Shown piece after piece: positions 15,805 to 48,900 of a stretch of 64,000 nt of DNA. The notes under the pieces were generated by a model. The model ran no database searches. It was not told where the DNA came from and saw only the letters and a program-made list of their open reading frames with translations. Source of the DNA: Nitrosopumilus sp. (GTDB taxonomy: Archaea; Thermoproteota; Nitrososphaeria; Nitrososphaerales; Nitrosopumilaceae). The stretch's first letter is position 1. Every line of letters begins with the position of its first letter. Position numbers and translations under genes: made by a program. The stretch lies in the NCBI GenBank assembly GCA_965219345.1, contig OZ244732.1:1-64000 (forward strand), written 5' to 3'.

Positions 15805-16858
15805 AACAAGAGAACTAATTATTACACCTAAGGTGTCTCAGGCACAATTAACCAAATTCCTTCATCAATTAGAAGCTGAAGGAATTATGATGGTGTATGT
15901 TGACCCCAAAAAACTAGGTAAGAAAAAAACAAAACTACAAACAGTTTTTCCTTCAAATGCTGCAAAGTATGTAGTTCTTGAAAAAGAAGGAGCATCCAAG
16001 CCTAAAGGCAAGAAAGTAGGAAGGAAATTCAAAGTATTATCAAATTCAGATATTGAAAATGTTCTTTCTGCTGCAAAAAAGGGACTAGACTTTGTCATAG
16101 TAGAAGTAAAAGATTGGAAAATTATTCCTCTTGAAAATATTATTGCCAAACTCCATAAAATACATACCAAAATTTTTGCAATTGCGAGAACACCAAAAGA
16201 AGTAAGAAAAATGTTTTCGATTTTAGAGGTAGGGGTTGATGGAGTAATCTTTACCACATCATCAATTAATGAAGTAAGAGAAGCAATGCTATATCTAGGA
16301 ACCAAAAATTTTGAGATGAGTCCTGCAAAGATTATTGAGATAAAAGAAGTAGGAGATGGCGAACGTGTTTGTGTAGATACAGCTTCAATGCTTCACAAAG
16401 GAGAAGGGATGTTAATTGGTAGTAGATCTAACTTTTTGTTTTTAGTTCACAACGAATCAGTAGGATCATCATTTACATCTCCAAGACCATTTAGGGTAAA
16501 TGCAGGTGCAGTTCATTGCTATACTCTTGCACCAGATGGTACAACAAACTATCTTTCAGAAGTTGAAACAGGTTCTGAAGTGTTAATTCTCAATTCCAAG
16601 GGAAAGGCAAGAAGAGCGACTGTTGGAAGATCAAAGATTGAACGAAGACCAATGTTAATGATCAAAGCATCCGCGGGAGGAGAGATAGGTGGAATTATTG
16701 CACAAGATGCCGAAACAATTCGTTTTGTAAAATCAAATGGACAACTAGTATCAGTTACACATCTAAAGAAGGGAGATACGATTATGGTGCATGCAAAACC
16801 TGCAATTGGTAGACATTTCGGAATGGAAGTTTCAGACGAATACATATTAGAAAAATAA
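15797..16858 (+). CDS. 3-dehydroquinate synthase II (archaeal aroB')
   Basis: DWKIIPLEN, RVCVDT, RPFRVNAGAVH, RHFG. Confidence 0.92.
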   Translation: MSKTRELIITPKVSQAQLTKFLHQLEAEGIMMVYVDPKKLGKKKTKLQTVFPSNAAKYVVLEKEGASKPKGKKVGRKFKVLSNSDIENVLSAAKKGLDFVIVEVKDWKIIPLENIIAKLHKIHTKIFAIARTPKEVRKMFSILEVGVDGVIFTTSSINEVREAMLYLGTKNFEMSPAKIIEIKEVGDGERVCVDTASMLHKGEGMLIGSRSNFLFLVHNESVGSSFTSPRPFRVNAGAVHCYTLAPDGTTNYLSEVETGSEVLILNSKGKARRATVGRSKIERRPMLMIKASAGGEIGGIIAQDAETIRFVKSNGQLVSVTHLKKGDTIMVHAKPAIGRHFGMEVSDEYILEK

Positions 16859-37380: not shown

Positions 37381-37845
37381 TAGAGATTATGCGTAATCGA
37401 TCATAATGTCAGCACAATACGTGGTTTTACGACACAGACACACGTCAGCGACAGGACGGCTTGCAGCCAGACAATCCGCACAACACATGAACAAAAACGC
37501 CAGAATCCAAAATGCGGTGCGCAGCCAGCAGACCCAAAGTAGTTTCTCGATCCTCGTGATAAAACAGAAACGCCAGAACCCAAAATGCGGTGCGCAGCCC
37601 TGCCTGCGTCCACTGGGATGTCGATGCCATGTCTGGTCTTCCACAGGCCGCGCTCAAGATCTAGCTCCTTGCCTTTCTGCTCCAGCTCCTTGCCTTTCTG
37701 CCCCAGAGTCTTCTTTAGTTTTTTGTTCTCCTGTTGCAGCTGGCGTATGGTTTGATCAGATGAATCTGGCATTTGACATGTGGTGGTATCGTGTCTGATC
37801 TAAACTTATCGGCGTGGGGTTTGGAGGGATTACGCATAATCTCTA
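37381..37845. mobile_element. MITE / internally deleted IS with 18 bp perfect terminal inverted repeats
   Basis: tagagattatgcgtaatc (37381-37398) / gattacgcataatctcta (37828-37845). GC-rich interior with a coiled-coil ORF stub on the minus strand. The terminal TA may be the target duplication. Confidence 0.85.
37490..37599. repeat. 37 bp direct repeat pair with 36 bp unique insert (period 73)
   Basis: aacaaaaacgccagaatccaaaatgcggtgcgcagcc at 37490-37526; copy with 2 mismatches at 37563-37599. Confidence 0.9.
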
Positions 37846-39014: not shown

Positions 39015-40340
39015 TTATCCTAATCCCATTTTTCTAAGTGTACCTTGCATTTGGCGCCCTTTGGAAGCCTTCATCATATTCTTCGAGTTTTTGTAATTTT
39101 TGATAAGTTCTTTAACCTCACCTTCGGGCCAGCCAGAACCACGAGCAATTCGTTTAATTCTTGATGAATTAAGCAAGTCAGGATCTGCTTTTTCACCTTT
39201 AGTCATACTTTGAATAATGTATCTCCATTTTGATACTCTATCTTCCATCTGATCTACTTGATCTTCTTTTACCATTCCTGAAAGACCAGGCATGCTCTCA
39301 AGAATTCCTTGTAAGGAGCCCATCTTAGTTACTTCTTCTAACTGATAAAGAAAATCTTCCATGTTCATTTTTCCACTAGAGATTCTTTTCATCCTTACAT
39401 CATCGCCCTCATCTTCCAATCGTTTTGCCAAATCCAATACAGCTTGAACATCACCCATGCCAAGTAATCGTCCAACAAATCGTGTAGGAGAGAATTTTTC
39501 TAAATCATCAATTCGTTCACCAGTACCAATGTACATTATTTGTGCACCAGTAGCTGCTGATGCAGCAAGTGCGCCACCGCCTTTTGCAGAACTATCTAAT
39601 TTTGTAATAATTACACCACCAACAGGGATAGTTTTGTGAAATGCTTCTGCTTGATTGTAACATTGTTGTCCGATAGTTCCATCAATTACAAGTAATGCTA
39701 AATCTGGTTCTGCAACTTTGTTAATTCTAGCTATCTCTTCAAGTAAGTCTTTCTCTTCTTTGTGACGTCCTGCTGTATCAATTAGAATTACATCTAACGG
39801 TTGTCCTGCAAAATGTTTTAATCCATTTTTTACAATGTTGGGAGAATCTTTGTTATTTTCTTCGCCATAGACTTCGACATTTGATTTTTCGCACATTGTT
39901 CTGAGTTGAACCAGTGCACCAGGCCTGTAGGTATCAGCACCAACAACTCCAACTTTGTATCCTTGTCTAGTTAAAAACTTGGCAAGTTTGGATGTAACAG
40001 TAGTTTTACCACTACCTTGAATTCCAAGCAAAATTAGTTTATTTTGCTTTCCAGGTTCGAAATCAAAATCAGACTCATTTCCCAGTAATTTTGAAAGTTC
40101 ATCGTAGAGGATCTTTACAATATGATCCTTACGTGAAAGACCAGGAGGAGGAGTCTCATTTAGTGCTCGTTCTTCCAGTTGTTTTGTAATTTCAAGAACT
40201 AATCTGACATTTACATCAGATTGTAATAATGCTCTTTGAACATCTTTAGAAAGATCTTTGATAAGTTCCTCGTCTATGCCTGAAGACTTGACAATCTTCT
40301 TGATTGCGGCACCTAAACTATCCTTAAGTCCATCAAGCAT
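39015..40340 (-). CDS. srp54: Signal recognition particle protein SRP54
   Basis: GIQGSGKTT, DTAGRH, TKLDSSAKGGG; M domain SRIKRIARGSG. Confidence 0.97.
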   Translation of the reverse strand: MLDGLKDSLGAAIKKIVKSSGIDEELIKDLSKDVQRALLQSDVNVRLVLEITKQLEERALNETPPPGLSRKDHIVKILYDELSKLLGNESDFDFEPGKQNKLILLGIQGSGKTTVTSKLAKFLTRQGYKVGVVGADTYRPGALVQLRTMCEKSNVEVYGEENNKDSPNIVKNGLKHFAGQPLDVILIDTAGRHKEEKDLLEEIARINKVAEPDLALLVIDGTIGQQCYNQAEAFHKTIPVGGVIITKLDSSAKGGGALAASAATGAQIMYIGTGERIDDLEKFSPTRFVGRLLGMGDVQAVLDLAKRLEDEGDDVRMKRISSGKMNMEDFLYQLEEVTKMGSLQGILESMPGLSGMVKEDQVDQMEDRVSKWRYIIQSMTKGEKADPDLLNSSRIKRIARGSGWPEGEVKELIKNYKNSKNMMKASKGRQMQGTLRKMGLG

Positions 40341-41022
40341 TGTAATTCAATCCCGCATCCATTATTTCAAACCTTCCTCTATATCCATCCCATATTTTTT
40401 TGGCCTGATTGATTTTAACTGAATTTGAAAAGAGAGGACAATCAACCACAAATGTTTCTGCTTCACCTCCTTCAAAGTTTAAGTTAAATCCAAATTTGTC
40501 AGACAAATGCTTTAAAGTATCAATATCAGATTTCGATATAGTTTTTCCTAACCAAGTGTCATCTAAGCCATCAGAAGACACAGTTATCATAATAAAAACA
40601 AAGTTAGAGTCTAGTAAATCATTCATGTATTGTTCTGGTTTAGTACCCCATAATGGTGAAACTACAATCAAGTCTAATTTTGAGCAAAGAGTTTCAAATT
40701 TTTCCTTTTGAAATTGGCTTTTAATTCCACCATGAACCAATCCTTCAATATGGAATTGTTCTTTAGCATTTTTTAACAAAGTCTCTAGTGCAAATAATTC
40801 ATCATTAGTTTCATCAGACTTGGAATGAATAGTTAATTGAGGAATTTTCATAGATTCAGATTGTAATTTTGTCCATTGTAAATTGGGATGATGTAGTAAA
40901 TGACTTTCTTCAGATTTTGTAAAGACACTTAGAAGACATGTAACCTTATGTCCTTGTTTTTGTGCCAGATAGATAGCATAAGTGCTATCTTTTCCACCTG
41001 AAAAAAAAGAACCTAGATTCAT
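40333..41022 (-). CDS. Diphthine-ammonia ligase (Dph6-family PP-loop ATPase)
   Basis: FSGGKDST and EGGEAET motifs. Confidence 0.9.
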   Translation of the reverse strand: MNLGSFFSGGKDSTYAIYLAQKQGHKVTCLLSVFTKSEESHLLHHPNLQWTKLQSESMKIPQLTIHSKSDETNDELFALETLLKNAKEQFHIEGLVHGGIKSQFQKEKFETLCSKLDLIVVSPLWGTKPEQYMNDLLDSNFVFIMITVSSDGLDDTWLGKTISKSDIDTLKHLSDKFGFNLNFEGGEAETFVVDCPLFSNSVKINQAKKIWDGYRGRFEIMDAGLNYNA

Positions 41023-41070
41023 GATCTAAAAAATATTCAATTCAACAAACTTTTGAAATTTGTTGAAAGG

Positions 41071-41135
41071 AGATGCTTCATTACTCATAATCCTCATCAA
41101 AAGTCAGACGGCTTTTCCGCTCATCATCAGCATCC
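41071..41135 (-). ncRNA. Archaeal C/D box sRNA
   Basis: Minus strand: GATGCT stem, box C ATGATGA, guide GCGGAAAAGCCGT, D' CTGA, C' TTGATGA, guide GGATTATGAGTA, D ATGA, AGCATC stem. Confidence 0.85.
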
Positions 41136-41138
41136 ACA

Positions 41139-41549
41139 TTAGCTCTTAATGCGCATGATTTTAGTTTTATCCATAACGACCCAGTACTCTACATTTTGTC
41201 CATTCTGTAATTTGCCTTTAACTTCATCATCAATCATAGCTACATCAATTGTTTCAAATGTTTCAGAGTCCATTACTTGTACAGTGTCACCATTAATTGA
41301 GATGATTTGACCTACTTTCTTGTTAATCAATGGAATGTGAATTTGCATACTGACTGGCCCTACATGAGGTCTTTTTTGACCATCAAAAATTCCCTGGGCA
41401 ACAATTCTTGCTTTTGCTGAACCGTGTTTTCCTGGTTTTGATGTATCATACTCAACAATTCTGCATGGCTCCCCACTGGGTTGATCAGAATGTGGTAATA
41501 GAATGTAAGAACCAATTTTCAAAGAACCAAGATCTGAGGGTTTACTCAT
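41139..41549 (-). CDS. eif5a: Translation factor aIF-5A
   Basis: SKPGKHGSAK hypusination motif. Confidence 0.96.
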   Translation of the reverse strand: MSKPSDLGSLKIGSYILLPHSDQPSGEPCRIVEYDTSKPGKHGSAKARIVAQGIFDGQKRPHVGPVSMQIHIPLINKKVGQIISINGDTVQVMDSETFETIDVAMIDDEVKGKLQNGQNVEYWVVMDKTKIMRIKS

Positions 41550-41617
41550 GCAAAAACAGTTTTTCGTCGAATATTTAACTTTTCTAATTGGATACTAGTC
41601 TTAATTGTAATCAGAAT

Positions 41618-41764
41618 CTATTCTTTAAGAGCAGTTTGTATCAATGGTTTTAGTTTCATTGTCATTTTAAAAAAATCTTCGTTAGGTTCAATACTTGCAA
41701 CAAATAAGTTGCTATCGTCTATTGGAACGCTGATCAAAGTAACTTTGTCATATTCTAAAACAGA
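41618..41764 (-). pseudogene. 3' fragment of a roadblock-like (DUF6659-like) thaumarchaeal gene
   Basis: SVLEYDKVTLISVPIDDSNLFVASIEPNEDFFKMTMKLKPLIQTALKE* with no start; abuts the ureD fragment head-to-head. Confidence 0.55.
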
Positions 41765-42273
41765 TCCCTGATCAAATAATCCCATACAGGAACTCTAGAT
41801 ATTATCAAAAAGTAAATCTTAATCTACACAATAATTCCACTTTGATTTATTCAGAAATTTTAACTTTAGGGAGAGTCGCTATGGGAGAATCTTTTGAATA
41901 TGATATCTGTTACTTAAGAACACACTGTAAGAATCAGGATAAAAAAATAAGATTTTTAGAAAATACAAAGATTGAACCAAAAAAACAAAGATTGGGAGAT
42001 TTTGGGGTTTTGGGAAAGTATAGTATAGTAGGAACAGTCTACATCCTGACCAAAAAGGAATACGTGGTTGAACTAGAAGATACTATAAACGAAAACATTA
42101 GAAATATAGACGTAGTTTCTGTTGGAACATCCATTCTTCCAGGTGAATCAGGGATAGTCATTAGGGTTTTGGGAAATAGAACAGATAGTCTTTTTGATGT
42201 AATTTTCAAAACACTTGAAATCATCCGAAAGAAAATTCTTGGAGCAACAATTAGTAAAACAAGAAAAAATTGA
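41764..42273 (+). pseudogene. ureD: 5'-truncated urease accessory protein UreD
   Basis: IPDQIIPYRNSRYYQ...YSEILTLGRVAMGESFEY resembles UreD motifs. The N-terminal portion is absent and no other ure genes are in the window. Confidence 0.8.
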
Positions 42274-42301
42274 GTAAAATATAGGGAAAAAATTTAATTT
42301 T

Positions 42302-42916
42302 TTACTTTAGTTGATCAAGAAGTGAAAGGCTCATTAAATTAGTCATTATCAATCCTTTTCTGTTAACATCACGTCGTGTTTGTTCACAGTATCTCTTTAC
42401 ACTTTGATGACTCTTTTCACTTGTAACTTCAAGTACTAGAATATTTTCAGAGTACGGAAATGTAAATTTTGAAGGAGATAAGCAATGTGTATTCATGTTT
42501 CCAAGTCCAGCTTTTTCAACGTTCATTCTCTTTAGTAAGAGATTTGCAATTTCTTGCAAGTCTTCATCAGATTCTCCATACTCAATATAATATATGGAGA
42601 CAAAATTAGTTTGTCCTTGGACTTCTCTTTGAAATAGATCGTCTTTGATATTAAATACAAAAGCAGTTTTTTCTTGGTTGTGTTTAGAAAAATCTTTGGA
42701 TATCTGTGTGCTATCTTTGAATTTGGCTAGAAGATAATGATTAGTTGAATCAGAAAAATATGGTTTGCTTTCAGTAGAAAATGTACCTGTAACAAAAAAT
42801 AATTTTTCTATATTTTTTGAATTAATCCAAGATTCTTTTAGCTCAATAGATTCATGTGTGTGTAAATATGGAGCACAAACATAACCAGAATAAGATAATT
42901 CTAGCTTTGACATCAA
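42302..42916 (-). CDS. Hypothetical protein
   Basis: 204 aa ORF with host-like composition. Confidence 0.7.
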   Translation of the reverse strand: MMSKLELSYSGYVCAPYLHTHESIELKESWINSKNIEKLFFVTGTFSTESKPYFSDSTNHYLLAKFKDSTQISKDFSKHNQEKTAFVFNIKDDLFQREVQGQTNFVSIYYIEYGESDEDLQEIANLLLKRMNVEKAGLGNMNTHCLSPSKFTFPYSENILVLEVTSEKSHQSVKRYCEQTRRDVNRKGLIMTNLMSLSLLDQLK

Positions 42917-43023
42917 AGCTTCAAAAACTTTTGACAGTATTTATGCGTATAGTACATAATACGATCAAAGGATCTAACCCGCCTACAATAGTTTTTTAAT
43001 AGTATAGATCTTGTTTTCCTTGT

Positions 43024-43150
43024 CCCAAGCTAGCTCAGCCTGGTAGAGCTTCCGGCTGTAGTTGTTGGCTTTAGATGGCTGACCGAATAACAGCATATCA
43101 GGCATACAGAAACCGGGTTGTCGAAGGTTCAATTCCTTCGCTTGGGACCA
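43024..43150 (+). tRNA. tRNA-Tyr(GTA) with about 50 nt intron at 37/38 and encoded CCA
   Basis: CCCAAGC/GCTTGGG acceptor stem, anticodon GTA at 43058-43060, intron about 43062-43111 with CTGT/ACAG helix and AAA bulge, T arm GAAGG-TTCAATT-CCTTC. Confidence 0.93.
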
Positions 43151-43249
43151 CAAAGTTTTCTATTAACTAAAAATTAATTTTGAAAATAAGAAAAAGATAG
43201 ACTGGATTTAAGAAAACAAAAAGAAATCTTAAATTAAAAAATTCATTGC

Positions 43250-43441
43250 CTATTCTGATTTTTTGACTTTTTGAGCTGCTGGGCCTTTTTGGCCTTCGCC
43301 TACTTCAAACTCTACTTTATCGCCTTCGTTGATGAATCCGTCAACATCTGATTTGTGAACAAACAGATCGTCTCCATCTTCTCTTTCGATAAAACCAAAG
43401 CCCTTAGTACGGTTAAACCATTTTACGGTGCCTTGTTCCAT
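43250..43441 (-). CDS. cspA: Cold-shock protein
   Basis: GTVKWFN..KGFGFI, LFVH, GQKGPAA. Confidence 0.95.
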
Positions 43442-43478
43442 TTGGTTTTTGAAATAATTAATCACTATATTAACTAAG

Positions 43479-43587
43479 GTATCAAAAGCAGATCAAGCCA
43501 AAAACAATAGTGGCGCCGTCAAATAATTCTGACTTGCAACAAGGGATGCAAGTATCAAAAGCAGATCAAGACAAAAACAATAGTGGC
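43479..43587. repeat. 36 bp direct repeat pair with 37 bp unique insert (period 73)
   Basis: gtatcaaaagcagatcaag(c/a)caaaaacaatagtggc at 43479-43514 and 43552-43587, 1 mismatch. Confidence 0.92.
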
Positions 43588-43898
43588 TAGAAATCTTTAG
43601 GGATGTGATTTTGTTCCTTTAACCAAGTCACTTGAGGAAGTGTGAATCTCCAAATAATATCTCCTCGTTCGTTCTCTTTAAAGTCCCAAGGCGCAATAAT
43701 CACAATATCATTATCTCTAATCCAAACTCTTCTCTTTAGTTTACCTCTAATTCTACCACGTCTGGTAACATTATCAGCACATTTTATCATGACATTTTCA
43801 CCTCCAAGCATTTTCAATACTCGTCCAAAAAGTTCACCTTCTTCAGGAAGACGAATCTCTTTCAGAGCACTTTCATTTTTTACTTGGCGCTTACCCAT
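43587..43898 (-). CDS. eif1a: Translation initiation factor aIF-1A
   Basis: GRVLKMLG, RIRGKLKRRVWI, PWDF, GDIIWR. Confidence 0.95.
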   Translation of the reverse strand: MGKRQVKNESALKEIRLPEEGELFGRVLKMLGGENVMIKCADNVTRRGRIRGKLKRRVWIRDNDIVIIAPWDFKENERGDIIWRFTLPQVTWLKEQNHIPKDF

Positions 43899-44006
43899 GA
43901 ATATCATTTAGATTCTGAGCATATAACTGATAGGGTTTTTGATAACGTAAATTCAGGTGTATTACAATACGCAAGAGATTTTATCTATTATACTAAAAAT
44001 TAATCT

Positions 44007-44570
44007 ATGGAATTTAGATGCATAAAAGAATGCTCTCAATGTTGTATTGAAAGGGAATATTATCCAAACAAAAGATTTGGAAAAATAGGAGTGCTAATTC
44101 TTCCTGAAGAGAAAGAAAGAATAGAAAAATTAGCAAAATCAAATAGATTAAAGATCAAAATTTTGCCAAGAATTGGAATTTCTGAAGACAGGAATTCTAT
44201 TCCAACAAAAATTTTGGCATATCAATTGATGGGAATTGAAAAAAATGGAAACACATGTCCTTTCTTAGACACAGATAGTGGAGACAAATCACCACATGGA
44301 GGGTTTCCGTGTAAAATTTACAAAGACAGACCACTTGCATGTATGGCATATCCGTTGATTGAATCGGAACCAGCTACATTTGATGAGAAATGCAAGTTTT
44401 GTAAAGAGCATGGAACTGCAGATCAGAATATTAATTCTGAAGTAGAGTCACTTCTAAAGATTAAAGAAAAAATGAACACCGATGCTTTATTCATTTGGAG
44501 ATTTGCAACGAAAGTGGGAGAAGAGGAAGATCAGAAAATCTTGGAGTCAGGTTGGATTTTAGAAGATTAG
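44007..44570 (+). CDS. YkgJ-family cysteine-cluster (Fe-S/Zn) protein
   Basis: CIKECSQCC, CPFL, CKIYKDRPLACMAYP. Confidence 0.88.
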   Translation: MEFRCIKECSQCCIEREYYPNKRFGKIGVLILPEEKERIEKLAKSNRLKIKILPRIGISEDRNSIPTKILAYQLMGIEKNGNTCPFLDTDSGDKSPHGGFPCKIYKDRPLACMAYPLIESEPATFDEKCKFCKEHGTADQNINSEVESLLKIKEKMNTDALFIWRFATKVGEEEDQKILESGWILED

Positions 44571-44640
44571 ACAAGCCATAAAACAGATATTGGCACGGTT
44601 TTAGGTAAAAATTCAAAAGGCACTAGAACTTTTGGTCAAT

Positions 44641-45141
44641 ATGAGTGAAGATGCATGGTCAAATTTAGACAAAGTTGATCAAAAAATCATAGAGATTCTT
44701 AATAACAATGCCAGAGCACCATCAAAAGAAATTGCATCAGAACTAGTAAAATCAGATCATGATGTTTCAGACAGAACAATCAGAAAAAGGATATAGCGCC
44801 TTGAGAAGAGTGGGATCATTAAAGGATACAAAGCAGTTCTAACAGATGTATCTGGAATTAACAAGTATGAAGCAATAATGATGAAACTAAAACCATCAAA
44901 ATCCTTCGAGTCAGCAAAGGATTCTATCAAAGAATTCATTACAAAATTAGATAATTATCTCCTAATAGCAAATATGGATAGAGAATGGAATATGTTAGTA
45001 ATAATTCAAGTAGATTCTGAAAAATCAAACGTGTCACAGAAGATTGTAAAAAAGTTTTCAGATGAATTAATTGATTATAGAATAAATGAGATAGACATCA
45101 AAGATACGAATATTCTGAACATGTCTTTACTTTTATTGTGA
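44641..45141 (+). pseudogene. Lrp/AsnC-family transcriptional regulator with in-frame TAG
   Basis: LDKVDQKIIEILNNNAR...SDRTIRKRI*RLEKSGIIKGY; TAG at 44794-44796 and the frame is otherwise open to 45141. Confidence 0.85.
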
Positions 45142-45199
45142 GCACAGTCATAGACGTCTTTGTTTGATCTTTTAAATCTGATCTAGGATTTTATTTATT

Positions 45200-45800
45200 A
45201 TGAAACCTGTAATAATTATCGCAATAGCATTTGTTCTGTTACTTCCATTATTTACAATTCCTACATATGCTCAAAATAATGAGATTGAAGAGAACGCAGA
45301 GTTAGATTCTATCGAAGATGACATTATCATTTACAACGCGGGCTAGATTTGATTAGTGTGGGTGTTATTGATAGAGAGAGTGCTTCGTCTGATTTAATTT
45401 TCTGGCGGACTATAGCATCTGATGAGATTGATTTTACAGAATTTCCACCACCTGATGATTGGGATCTTACAAATGGTTACGTTATAGACAAAACAGGTCT
45501 AAACATTGATCCAGATTTTTACAAAGTTAAGACACGAGGTTCTTTTTTCAATGACTTTGATTTTAGAAATTATCCATACGACAAAATAGATCTAGACATA
45601 CACATTGAACCTTATTTTCCTCTTACAACAAGTAGAGTAGTTTTTGAAGTAAATGAAAAATGGTGTCATAAATCCTGATACGGTTAGCGTTCCAGGATGG
45701 ACAATGGGTAAACCTAAATTCTCAGCATATACAGCTGCTTATTCGTGGGGAAGTTTTACACATTTTGAGGCACACTTTCCTGTTGAGACATCTCCAGTTG
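45200..45800 (+). pseudogene. Decayed pentameric ligand-gated ion channel-like gene (extracellular domain)
   Basis: Signal peptide from ATG 45200, frameshifts near 45344 and 45660, FDFRNYPYDKIDL Pro-loop motif, VSVPGW. Cut off by the MITE at 45801. Confidence 0.65.
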
Positions 45801-45979
45801 GGTTCTGTTGCATCTTAGTGACCTAAGCATAACCATCATATAATTTTTAGAAAAAATGATTTTGTCAAGGCTTACGATCAATGACGGAACCAAAAGGAAC
45901 ACAAACCACGCTTTAGATAAATTTTGAATCTAGAGAAGATCCGTATTTTATGCTTAGGTCATGAAGATGCAACAGAACC
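45801..45979. mobile_element. 179 bp MITE with IS6-family-like ends
   Basis: 32 bp TIRs ggttctgttgcatctt(ag/ca)tgacctaagcataa with 2 mismatches. GGTTCTGTTGCA resembles IS257/IS431 ends. No target duplication. Confidence 0.85.
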
Positions 45980-48900
45980 AAAACGGATAGTATTAAAGAG
46001 TCATGCATTGTGTATGATCAATATTTCCTAGTTTGGTCTTTTTGATGTTATCTCACAAGACACATTGTTTTTACCATCATTTCCATGACATTTGTCTATT
46101 CCCTTGCCACCAACAATTTTATCATTACCTGCTTCTCCTTGGATATAGTCATCACCTGAGTTCCCATTGAGGATATCGTTACTGTTACCTCCCAAGATAT
46201 AGTCATTTCCTGCACCGCCACTTATGCTATCCTTGCCGTCTCCACCAATGATACAGTCATTGCCTGCTTTACCCTTTATGCTGTCTTTTCCTTCATATCC
46301 TAAAATTAAATCATCATGTATCGTTCCAACTAGCTTGTCATTGTTTTGCGTTCCTTGTATCAGAACATAATGCGTTGCAGGATATCCACAGTATAGTGTT
46401 AAGTTATCTACAGATGCAATCTGTGGTACTAGCTTGTGTATGATATCACTTTGCGTAGTGTAATCATATATTTCGATGGACAGTGCTGTTTTATCTGGCA
46501 TATTATCACCCAAGAGAATATCGTCTGCAACATCAAAGTGTACAGCCGTGTAGGGCTTGTTGTTTTGTAATAATGACTGTGTGTCAGTAATACTGTATAA
46601 CATTGCCTGTTCTGGATTTATCAATCTGATATCCATAGTATATGGATCAAAGATTATTCCAGGTATTGTTACACTAAAGGATTTACCGGCATATTTTTCA
46701 TGGATTTGCTGGTATCTCTTGTATTTCTCTGAGATATCTTTTGATAATGACTTTGCAAGCTGTGATGATGTTACATCAAAGGTACTCCAATTCCCTGAGT
46801 ATACGTATGCAGAACCTGAATTAGTACCTGCATCATCATCTCCTCGGACTCCTGCAACTATAATATTACCTGATACAGATACAGGATCTGCAAATGTATC
46901 CCATGATGAAGTGTTTTGTGGTGATATTGCAGATACTTGTTCCCATGTACCGTCTATCTTCTCAAAGATATATGCTGCCCCACCAAAACTTGCTCGTGTT
47001 GCATCACCCCATGCTCCGACTACTATCGTATCCCCATGTATTGATACAGAATCACCAAAGTATGCAGAACGGTGTCCAAAGCTTGGGAGTAGTTTTTGTG
47101 TTTGTATCCATGAATCATCTATCTTCTCAAAGACATAGGCAGAGCCTGAATTGTACCCAAAGTCATCATTTGCATGTGCGCCAACTACTATGGTGTCTCC
47201 ATGTATGGATATGCCTAATCCAAAGTGATCAGAACTGGCACCATCGCCGGCAACAATCTTTGCAGTCTGTTCCCATGTACCATTCATCTTCTCAAAGATA
47301 TATGCAGAGCCTGAGTTTGAGCCATTATCGTCATCCATCCATGCACCTACAACTATTATATTCTCATAGATATCAGTAGATACTCCAAAAGAGTCATAAT
47401 CACTAGCGTCATCAGGTGTTAGTCTTGTATCTTCTGACCAGCCAGATCCATCTTTTTGGTATACATATACTGCACCAGTTGATATGCCTCCAATGTCTCC
47501 TGATGCCATAGCAGATACGGCAGTATTACCATGTATGGATACTGCATTTCCAAATCTGTCTTGTGGCATGCTGTCTGATGTAGTTAACTTTTGTGTTTGC
47601 ATCCATGTGTTATTTATCTTCTCAAAGATATATGCAGAACCAGAGTTTGAACCGTAATCGTCATCATATTTTGCAGATACTATTGCTGTACCGTCATATA
47701 TTGAGACTGCTGCGCTAAATATATCTCCGCGTTCCAAGTCATCAGATACAATCTTTGCAGTCTGGCTCCATGAGTAATTTTCTTGCTCAAAGATGTAAGC
47801 TGCGCCTGAAAGTACATTATCATTTATCTTGGCTGATGCAATGATTGTATTACCATGTATATCGATATTTTGTGCAAAGTAATTTGCCCATCTGTTACCC
47901 TCAGGGGCTATCTTTTGCAAATAAGTTGCATGAGGGATTGCCACACCGCCAGGGTCTGATATTACACCATTAATGGTATTATCTGCATCTCCAAGGCCAT
48001 CCTGTATTGTTATAGTTTGAGTATCAGAGGCACTATTTCCAGCATCATCAGTGGCAGTCCAGACAACAATAGTTGTTCCAACAGGAAAAGAGGCAGGTGC
48101 ATCATTTGTTATAACAGGATTAGGATCCGTATCATCAGAAGCAGTAGCTATTCCAATTTGAGTAGAACTAAGAGTAGTCAGTAAACCCATGGCCTCAAAC
48201 GTAGCATCAGAAGGCGCAACAATTACAGGAGAGGTAACATCAAGAGTCAAAGTTACTATGACATCAAAAGAAGTCATAGCATTACCATCTGAATGTGTAA
48301 CAGTGCAAAGTACAGTAGTAGTACCAACAGGGAATATAGAACCTGATGTATAATCACAAGTTACAATGCCTTTATCAGCAGTAGGTAAACTAAAAGTTAC
48401 AACTTTACCAGAGACATCATCAGTTGATACAGAAATATCAGAAACAGTTGATGTAAATGATGCAGGAATGGAAGGTGGAGATCCGCCAGAAACACGGGTA
48501 GCAATAAACTGCACATCATCAATTCCAACATCTTCAGCACCTAAGCTCATGTGAGCAGAGAATCTAAAATTAAAGTCAGAGACATTTGTGTAATCAGACA
48601 AAGAATAATTTTCTAAATGCCACGCATCATCATCATCAGAATTTTCTTGATTCCATTTATCAAGCTCAATCCAGCTAGAGCCGTCATAAATCTCTAAAAT
48701 CAAATATTCGTTCAAGTCAAGAGCGCGGTCCACATATCTGTAAAACGATAAAAACTCATCTGAATAATCAGTCATGTCTAAAGAGACAGATTTTGTCAAA
48801 GTACAAACAGTATCACAATCATCAGCTTCAGCTACTTTGTTTGATGCGGTATGATCCGGAGGCAATCTGAACTCATCGAATCTATCAGCTCTCCAATTAG

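Follow-up and report, generated by a model that had tools for sequence, protein, structure and literature searches.

What would make a 36-nucleotide (nt) stretch stand twice, around a short and unrelated insert, between two housekeeping genes of an archaeal chromosome? The question is raised by positions 43479-43587 of a 64,000-nt stretch of Nitrosopumilus sp. DNA (hereafter the window, which is C1:1-64000 of a genome of 1.91 Mb, 36% G+C and two contigs), where such a unit lies between the gene aIF-1A and the cold-shock protein gene csp. We consider it highly probable that the unit is the scar of an off-array spacer integration made by the adaptation complex (the fusion protein Cas4g/Cas1g together with Cas2) of the type I-G CRISPR-Cas system resident in the same genome. 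What we count as observed is the geometry, the empty sites in relatives, an intact and matching type I-G system, a recurrence across the genome that is confined to this geometry, inserts derived from the chromosome itself, and a motif of two-fold symmetry at the targets. A sequence-only reading of the window had already put forward a naturally fixed off-array spacer integration as its main idea, and this idea is now supported by the empty sites, the resident system, the non-decayed insert, and contigs that span the unit.

A repeat search of the window gives two direct copies of 36 nt each, at 43479-43514 (left) and 43552-43587 (right), identical at 35 of 36 positions (97%) and spaced 73 nt from start to start, with a 37-nt insert (43515-43551) flanked by both, so that the geometry is 36+37+36. 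Every detail of the arrangement noticed earlier, a 36-bp stretch present twice with one mismatch around a unique 37-bp insert between aIF-1A and csp, is thereby confirmed. The bases that precede the two copies are unlike (g at 43478, a at 43551), as are those that trail them (g at 43515, t at 43588); because the outer bases differ on both sides, the bounds of the duplicated block are unambiguous and its length is exactly 36 nt. The right copy does end, as had been stated, on the last base of the aIF-1A stop codon (copy end 43587; stop TAG, 43587-43589). The whole 109-nt unit occurs once in the genome, and the insert, which has no other copy there, is not a decayed third copy of the repeat, a possibility considered at the outset: it has no similarity to the repeat, and its best match in its own genome is 15 nt.

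Might the unit be an assembly or sequencing artefact? This is barely credible, and nothing was found that speaks for it. Contigs of independent runs in Logan carry the unit with 0 differences in all four runs examined, which come from three studies: a contig of 5101 nt in run X1 (a run that may be the source of the assembly) spans 43100-44050, one of 4801 nt in X2 spans 43391-44050, one of 165 nt in X5 covers 43446-43610 at depth 3.4, and one of 332 nt in X6 covers 43400-43731 at depth 6. Furthermore, the roughly 30 similar units of differing sequence described below cannot stem from one misassembly. Run X6 is dominated (contig depth ~4900) by a relative whose sequence parts from that of the window at 43487, within the left copy, and it is the window's own sequence, including the unit, that is present there at depth 6.

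The site before the event can be seen in related genomes. Forty relatives were searched for csp and aIF-1A; of the 24 that belong to the same genus, all except G001 gave a match. In each of these 23 the two genes stand side by side. Between the csp ATG and the aIF-1A stop lie 145 nt in the present genome, whereas 21 of the relatives have 43-73 nt there and the remaining two have 154 and 297 nt; neither the duplication nor the insert is present in any of these 23 syntenic genomes. In the closest relative (G007, ~91-92% identical), the intergenic sequence measures 71 nt (36+35) and holds one copy of the 36-mer and no insert, a single copy being indicated by the two halves of the BLAST query landing on overlapping subject coordinates. 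G359, another member of the genus, likewise has one copy and no insert, and all 400 other family genomes scanned, at up to three mismatches, lack the insert as well. Comparison of this intergenic region in relatives, proposed as a check by the sequence-only reading, thus gave the single 36-mer without insert that a duplication at integration calls for. At the sole differing position (position 20), the left copy carries the base of G007 (C) and the right copy a derived A; the right copy was therefore mutated after the duplication.

An enzyme with the appropriate dimensions is encoded elsewhere on the chromosome. The window was rightly said to contain no cas genes, since no Cas1 or Cas2 match falls at C1:1-64000; matches occur at 1.64 Mb and 1.12 Mb of the same chromosome. 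A search with NCBIfam profiles, with which Pfam agrees, identified a complete, open-framed type I-G gene set ~1.6 Mb from the focal unit. Its adaptation complex genes stand together at C1:1639572-1641483 (Pfam Cas1 and Cas2 matches at C1:1640274-1641483) and encode a Cas4g/Cas1g fusion of 561 amino acids (aa; NF049935, 754 bits against a cut-off of 560) with Cas2 beside it; beyond the array, on the opposite strand, follow Csb2 (Cas5/6), Csb1/Cas7g, Cas8g1/Csx17 (563 bits) and Cas3g (732 bits). Judged from its sequence, then, an adaptation module (cas1, cas2) with open frames is present in the same genome and adjoins a 164-repeat array. An IS1595-family transposase gene lies ~1 kb beyond cas3g (C1:1661997-1662707, minus strand).

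The array itself (C1:1641728-1653825) comprises 164 repeats and 163 spacers. By column conservation, its repeat is exactly 36 nt long; it ends 3' in ATTGAAGC and forms a 7-bp hairpin (-8.3 kcal/mol, z -3.4). Spacer lengths (n = 163) are 36 nt in 37 cases, 37 nt in 35, 38 nt in 34, 39 nt in 23 and 40 nt in 13, and the corresponding periods are 72 (37), 73 (35), 74 (34), 75 (23), 76 (13) and 71 (8). Hence the fused cas4/cas1, the cas2 and the array with 36-nt repeats and spacers mostly of 36-40 nt that had been suggested as objects of search elsewhere in the genome do exist. The focal duplication equals the resident repeat length and its 37-nt insert falls within the resident spacer range; with such a repeat and such spacers, the 36+37+36 unit is precisely what a single integration by the type I-G system would yield. 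The alternative offered alongside the main idea, an unknown integrase making 36-bp duplications, thus becomes unnecessary, the resident type I-G integrase having a ruler of exactly 36 nt.

A plausible course of events can be outlined. The two 3' ends of a ~37-nt prespacer would attack opposite strands of the chromosome 36 nt apart, this distance being the ruler that the complex would use on its own 36-nt repeat; gap repair would then duplicate the 36-nt target on either side of the insert. The stretch that separates the aIF-1A stop codon from the csp promoter block would have served as the target. We infer Cas4/1-Cas2 as the enzyme, the order of these steps, the neutrality of the event, and the absence of CRISPR RNA (crRNA) production from the unit.

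If the resident complex integrates outside its array, the focal unit need not be alone. The entire genome was scanned for isolated repeat-insert-repeat units at periods of 40-130 with a repeat of 30-40 nt, a gap of at least 15 nt, at most two mismatches, non-periodic flanks, and no 8-mer common to repeat and insert. Outside the array, 35 such units were found, all at periods 64-78 and 28 of them at periods 70-76; under the same filter, the 76 other periods (40-63 and 79-130) gave none. The distribution is one unit at period 64, two at 65, one each at 66, 67, 68 and 70, four at 71, five at 72, nine at 73, six at 74, two at 75, and one each at 76 and 78, the last being rejected as a protein repeat. 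Protein tandem repeats at C1:10928, 1030900, 1168732, 1482757, 1706949, 1778712 and 1779671 had also been removed from the list. Among the 28 units at periods 70-76, the repeat is 36 nt long in 11, 37 in 8, 38 in 4 and 32-35 in 5, lengths above 36 arising from chance identity of a flanking base and lengths of 32-35 from a mismatch near an end; their two copies differ by no mismatch in 19 units, by one in 7 and by two in 2. About thirty such scars are present in this chromosome, and the focal unit is one of them. Empty sites in G007 were found for three further units (1248140, 966989 and 1573079); for units 1519410, 915773 and 321414 the flanks had no counterpart in G007, G024, G009, G011 or G013, and for 1519410 the sole match in relatives is the insert itself, whose source gene is conserved.

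The inserts are mutually different, save for two pairs (37490/243305 and 1483340/1826944) that lie in duplicated DNA with common flanks. One member of the first pair is a second unit within the window (37490-37599; 37-nt repeat with two mismatches, 36-nt insert, period 73). A near-identical copy that shares its insert and left flank stands 206 kb away at C1:243305-243414, so that this unit was copied along with a larger duplicated segment. Some repeated sequence families were targeted more than once, with different inserts and at slightly different offsets (404166 versus 1448839; 1483340 versus 1824847 and 1826944), which suggests that hot-spot target sequences exist inside a repeated element.

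Comparison among genomes with and without the fusion gene points to the same enzyme. Cas4g/Cas1g above the family cut-off occurs in eight of 101 genus genomes, the present one counted, and G007 has none. In the seven other carriers (G359, G438, G407, G398, G400, G009 and G014), the same 36-nt repeat family adjoins the gene, with compensatory changes in the hairpin stem (variants CCATAAC/GTTATGG, CCGTAAC/GTTACGG and CCGCAAC/GTTGCGG) and an invariant 3' end, CCCCATTGAAGC. The same filter was then applied to 1.2 Mb each of this genome (its first 1.2 Mb), G359 and G007. This genome gave 20 units, all at periods 70-78; G359, which has Cas4g/Cas1g and the same type I-G repeat, gave 24 rows, 17 of them at periods 72-73; and G007, without Cas4g/Cas1g, gave 11 rows. 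A 72-nt tandem protein repeat with many copies accounts for six of the 24 rows of G359 (five at period 72 and one at 69) and was removed together with two other protein-repeat regions; the remaining rows at 72-73 resemble the units of this genome. Eight of the 11 rows of G007 are two real CRISPR arrays (C1:~16240-16540 and ~883260-885480) with a different 36-nt repeat, GTTTCAATC...ATTCAGAG, and two more rows are at periods 99 and 101; the arrays were removed, as were 25-aa repeat proteins at period 75.

Two nascent arrays are among the remaining G359 rows at 72-73: at 198815-198995 (198815/198886) and 325797-325975 (325797/325869), a non-CRISPR sequence of 36-37 nt stands three times around two different inserts of 33-36 nt. 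To judge by these three-repeat sites, an off-array site can gain a second spacer.

Where do the inserts come from? Seven of those in this genome match distant DNA of the same chromosome over their full length, six exactly and one with one mismatch. The respective units and donors are 88227 (523291-523329), 123645 (561910-561942), 429362 (1084474-1084510), 915773 (1636412-1636448), 919312 (575144-575179), 1519410 (249804-249840) and 1638625 (301522-301557, one mismatch). In all seven the flanks of the donor differ from those of the unit, the copied piece being only 33-39 nt, and an insert of G359 (416383) is similarly a perfect 37/37 copy of G359's own DNA. The unit at C1:1638625-1638733 lies ~840 nt upstream of cas4/1 and breaks the end of an open reading frame (ORF) of 154 aa. 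None of the 163 array spacers has a full-length match in its own genome (best 21 nt); the contrast of 7 of 33 off-array inserts with 0 of 163 array spacers is significant (Fisher p = 2e-6) and is as expected if self-derived spacers kill the cell in a working array and do no damage outside it, where crRNA is not produced. Inserts have a G+C content of 43% and array spacers one of 42%, higher in either case than the 36% of the genome.

Exact or near-exact copies of distant chromosomal DNA are also what templated insertions would be, and together with the lack of an evident protospacer-adjacent motif (PAM) they lend something to another explanation, in which slippage or microhomology-mediated template switching during replication or repair copied a distant template and duplicated the flank without any CRISPR machinery. 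We nevertheless regard such an origin as very improbable. Repair has no reason to duplicate exactly 36 nt and to insert 33-40 nt, and nothing was found at the 76 other periods; the genome without Cas4g/Cas1g yielded 1 unit in 1.2 Mb against 20 here; the ends of the focal insert share no microhomology with the flanks; and a symmetric G-T-N-G motif marks both cut sites.

That motif emerges from 14 units with unambiguous 36-nt borders (11 of this genome and three of G359), which provide 28 half-sites, each read inward on its own strand. Position +1 is G in 13 of the 28 (T once), +2 is T in 18 (G never), +4 is G in 18 (C never), and +6 is A in 16; for G at +4, the binomial p is 8e-8, or 6e-6 when corrected for 80 tests. 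Two-fold symmetry of a motif that recurs on the opposite strand at a distance of 36 nt is what a Cas1-Cas2 integrase would be expected to leave behind. The focal target has G at +1 on both borders read inward.

Several observations weigh against an origin of the focal unit in the type I-G complex, or at least fit it imperfectly. The focal half-sites agree with the motif only at +1, and on the left also at +2 and +6. The focal target matches the true repeat at 14 of 36 positions, and the mean over 29 units is 12.6, compared with 10.8 for random 36-mers, a difference that the choice of offset inflates somewhat; given so weak a resemblance, mimicry of the repeat by the targets is not claimed. Ectopic periods are slightly shorter than those of the array (mean 72.9 versus 74.0, Mann-Whitney p = 0.025). 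G007 still has one isolated unit at these periods (660163, 38+34) although it is without Cas4g/Cas1g. For only five of the 35 units does the surrounding 1-kb window find a counterpart in two sampled relatives, compared with 781 of 1871 windows overall (42%, p = 5e-4), and some units could have arrived with horizontally acquired DNA; a local origin is favoured by the self-derivation of some inserts. TTN precedes two of the seven self-derived donors in either orientation, and no consistent PAM is discernible. TTN accompanies 50% of spacers that are unique and >80% of spacers overall among those acquired by the type I-G/I-U Cas4/1 of Geobacter sulfurreducens (PMC6547450); those experiments and the ones on Methanosarcina barkeri (PMC10504553) used a supplied leader-repeat and observed selection for a TTN PAM, unlike the off-array inserts here, which have no clear TTN (2/7).

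To these points must be added the missing donor of the focal insert. The sequence-only reading had advised a search for its protospacer and PAM in the genome, in viruses and in metagenomes, and neither was found. The best match to INPHARED phages by blastn is 17-20 nt (E = 6, chance); exact matching gave 0 in IMG/VR and 0 in JGI metagenome contigs, searches that a diverged donor would escape; at up to three mismatches the insert occurs in 0 of 400 other genomes of the family; and it has no match in the 1.2-Mb samples of G359 and G007 and no similarity to the 163 array spacers. As no donor was found in these searches, neither a foreign origin nor a PAM is demonstrated for the focal insert. The array spacers, too, gave no protospacer: neither half of the array matched any phage, and 100 genus genomes gave array-to-array matches only, plus two hits that were rejected when they proved to be solitary type I-G repeats without an array, in other species of the genus (G017:C1:1535361-1535404 and G410:C1:1629273-1629313). 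G017 has no Cas4g/Cas1g above the family cut-off.

Could another integrase have left the scar? Such an enzyme might be of the Cas1 family or unrelated; a casposase is one example, a second CRISPR adaptation module, now extinct, another. Support for it may be sought in an isolated Cas1 fragment at C1:1123019-1123234 (an 83-aa open frame covering Pfam Cas1 positions 210-281, without cas neighbours), which may be what is left of a casposon or of an adaptation module that was lost, and in Cas1-only genes of 330-450 aa in many genomes of the genus. It may also be sought in a minority class of units with duplications of 27-32 nt (once 36), inserts of 32-39 nt and periods of 64-68, a hint of a second ruler or of sloppy attack at the spacer side. 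These units lie at C1:431953, 1251065, 1265409, 1448839, 1483340, 1573079, 1573481 and 1824847, and six remain after filtering; that at 1573079 is among those with an empty site in G007. The class may reflect a slipping 36-nt ruler, through inaccurate spacer-side attack, or else an integrase with a ~30-nt ruler or a lost system. For the focal unit, however, we would give another integrase little chance: its duplication, like that of most units, is exactly as long as the type I-G repeat, and the period distribution follows the type I-G array; no intact second cas1 is present, one of the two Pfam Cas1 matches being the fragment; and G359, with the same type I-G repeat, shows the same scars. Casposon target duplications, moreover, are of ~14-15 bp and thus unlike 36 nt. 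Nor does the unit look like a transposon or casposon, given an insert of only 37 nt that is unique in the genome and sister units whose inserts all differ save for paralogous copies.

The surroundings of the unit bear on whether it does anything at all. Along the minus strand, the aIF-1A stop is followed by the right copy, the insert, the left copy, a conserved block with TTAATATA and, finally, the csp ATG. The aIF-1A gene (43590-43907, minus strand; ORF 43587-43907) is intact, matches eIF-1A (PF01176, 69.7 bits) and ends in a C-terminus, WLKEQNHIPKDF followed by the stop, that is conserved among 23 relatives; csp (43253-43441, minus strand; PF00313, 77.6 bits) is likewise intact and begins MEQGTVKWF at a conserved ATG at 43441. 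The conserved block CACTATATTAACTAAG, TATA-like as TTAATATA on the minus strand, occupies 43463-43478, ~25 nt upstream of the csp ATG, and is visible in the relatives' intergenic sequences; by analogy with archaeal promoter architecture, it is the putative core promoter of csp. It directly adjoins the left copy and was untouched by the insertion. Thus aIF-1A retains its ancestral first 36 nt downstream, with T-runs, and csp retains its ancestral 36 nt upstream of the promoter block. That the duplication leaves both genes their original 36 nt would account for the tolerance of an event between two housekeeping genes.

A transcribed housekeeping neighbourhood, with a 36-mer that carries T-runs downstream of aIF-1A and adjoins the csp promoter block, might also favour a functional element, either a two-repeat mini-array from which a guide RNA arises or a regulatory or terminator site whose duplication was selected to control csp or aIF-1A; that the two sites in G359 gained a second insert, so that nascent arrays can grow, speaks for the former. 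Function of either kind is, in our estimation, a shade less probable than the two rival origins considered above. On neither strand does the pseudo-repeat fold significantly (z -0.6 to +0.9 versus shuffled sequence), compared with z -3.4 for the real repeat, and it lacks both the hairpin and the 8-nt 3' handle ATTGAAGC; with only 14 of 36 positions shared, it does not belong to the type I-G repeat family. The arrangement occurs in no relative and is hence not conserved, and one copy has already mutated. Since hairpin and handle are absent, the unit is expected to be an inert scar rather than a working mini-array, and would yield no crRNA.

Two further features of the window may be recorded. 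Rfam places a transfer RNA (tRNA) at 43024-43147 (plus strand, 47.4 bits) that, being spread over 124 nt, must hold one or more introns; ARAGORN reports no tRNA in 40000-47000. At 41076-41131 (minus strand), just downstream of the ORF at 41139-41549, there are weak matches to archaeal C/D-box small RNAs (sR41, 28.1 bits, under the gathering score of 54).

Elsewhere in the chromosome, several of the sister units lie in clusters (426365, 429362 and 431953; 1335276, 1339320 and 1339961; 1503080, 1504869, 1510756 and 1519410). When a unit is deleted in silico, the open frame around it grows at several sites, from 257 to 666 aa at 1519410, from 185 to 303 aa at 1339320 and from 218 to 304 aa at 1503080. 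Other units are in-frame additions, such as that at 88227, which adds 75 nt to a 2012-aa frame. Most scars, so, persist where they are cheap, and the focal unit is among the few in conserved core DNA.

A more general proposition follows, which we hold to be somewhat better than an even bet: in members of this genus of marine ammonia-oxidising archaea that have type I-G, Cas4/1-Cas2 integrates spacers at ordinary chromosomal sites so frequently that dozens of fixed scars per genome result, which record self-derived and PAM-less spacers that the array cannot keep, break or lengthen genes mostly in the flexible genome, and occasionally seed new two-spacer arrays. If so, off-array integration would represent a cost that adaptive immunity incurs in mutations, and one open to measurement; it would also be a way in which new CRISPR loci arise naturally. 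The scars would amount to a fossil record of spacer capture that is naive and unselected. In this genome the evidence is unusually clean on four counts: the ruler matches exactly, sister species have empty sites, the background around the size class is zero, and relatives with the integrase contrast with one that has none. It would allow the collateral damage that CRISPR adaptation does in nature to be estimated, as in the frame of 257 instead of 666 aa at C1:1519410. The off-array inserts would be an unselected sample of what the integrase captures, the seven self-derived ones, against none in the array, making the purging of self-targeting spacers visible, and the three-repeat mini-arrays of G359 would show the first steps toward a new array. 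No literature report of many natural off-array integrations in one genome, or of any in Thaumarchaeota, was found, in a search that covered subscription journals poorly, so that their absence is not proven.

How, then, does this locus compare with known systems? In Escherichia coli, over-expressed Cas1-Cas2 of type I-E reportedly integrates spacers off target and so creates 'neo-CRISPR' loci, as described by Nivala, Shipman and Church in 2018. The units described here share with those loci a spacer-length insert, a duplication of host DNA one repeat long, a position outside the array, and, in G359, the ability of a site to acquire more. They differ in being natural and fixed, in belonging to an archaeal type I-G system with a Cas4/Cas1 fusion and a 36-nt ruler, and in their number of ~30 scars per chromosome, several of them inside ORFs and seven with self-derived inserts. 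Natural evidence for off-target integration, from two other species, is called 'circumstantial' in a preprint that cites that work (10.1101/148544).

Cas1-Cas2 of Pyrococcus furiosus has been found in vitro to perform off-target full-site integration at G/C positions one repeat length apart, with G1 and T2 enriched (PMC6698737). Paired attacks on opposite strands one repeat apart are likewise indicated here, with G at +1, T at +2 and G at +4 at both ends; unlike that system, which used plasmids and a 30-bp repeat, the events here are chromosomal, took place in vivo, are inherited, follow a 36-nt ruler, and show little likeness of the target to the repeat interior. With the type I-G/I-U systems of G. 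sulfurreducens (PMC6547450) and M. barkeri (PMC10504553), the present one shares the gene set, repeats that end in ...ATTGAAGC, and spacers mostly of ~36 nt. For a type I-G complex in vitro, integration is reported to take place at the correct site in 60-70% of cases at the spacer side and in 80-90% at the leader side (PMC10504553).

Finally, 'ectopic' acquisition, in the usage established for Streptococcus thermophilus, usually refers to integration inside the array at a true repeat (PMC8047081). The focal unit resembles such acquisition in lying away from the leader-proximal repeat and differs from it in that the target is ordinary non-CRISPR DNA, for which reason 'off-array' is preferable as a term. 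Events of this kind are already known, and what the present genome adds is a natural, fixed, archaeal type I-G case at unusual scale.

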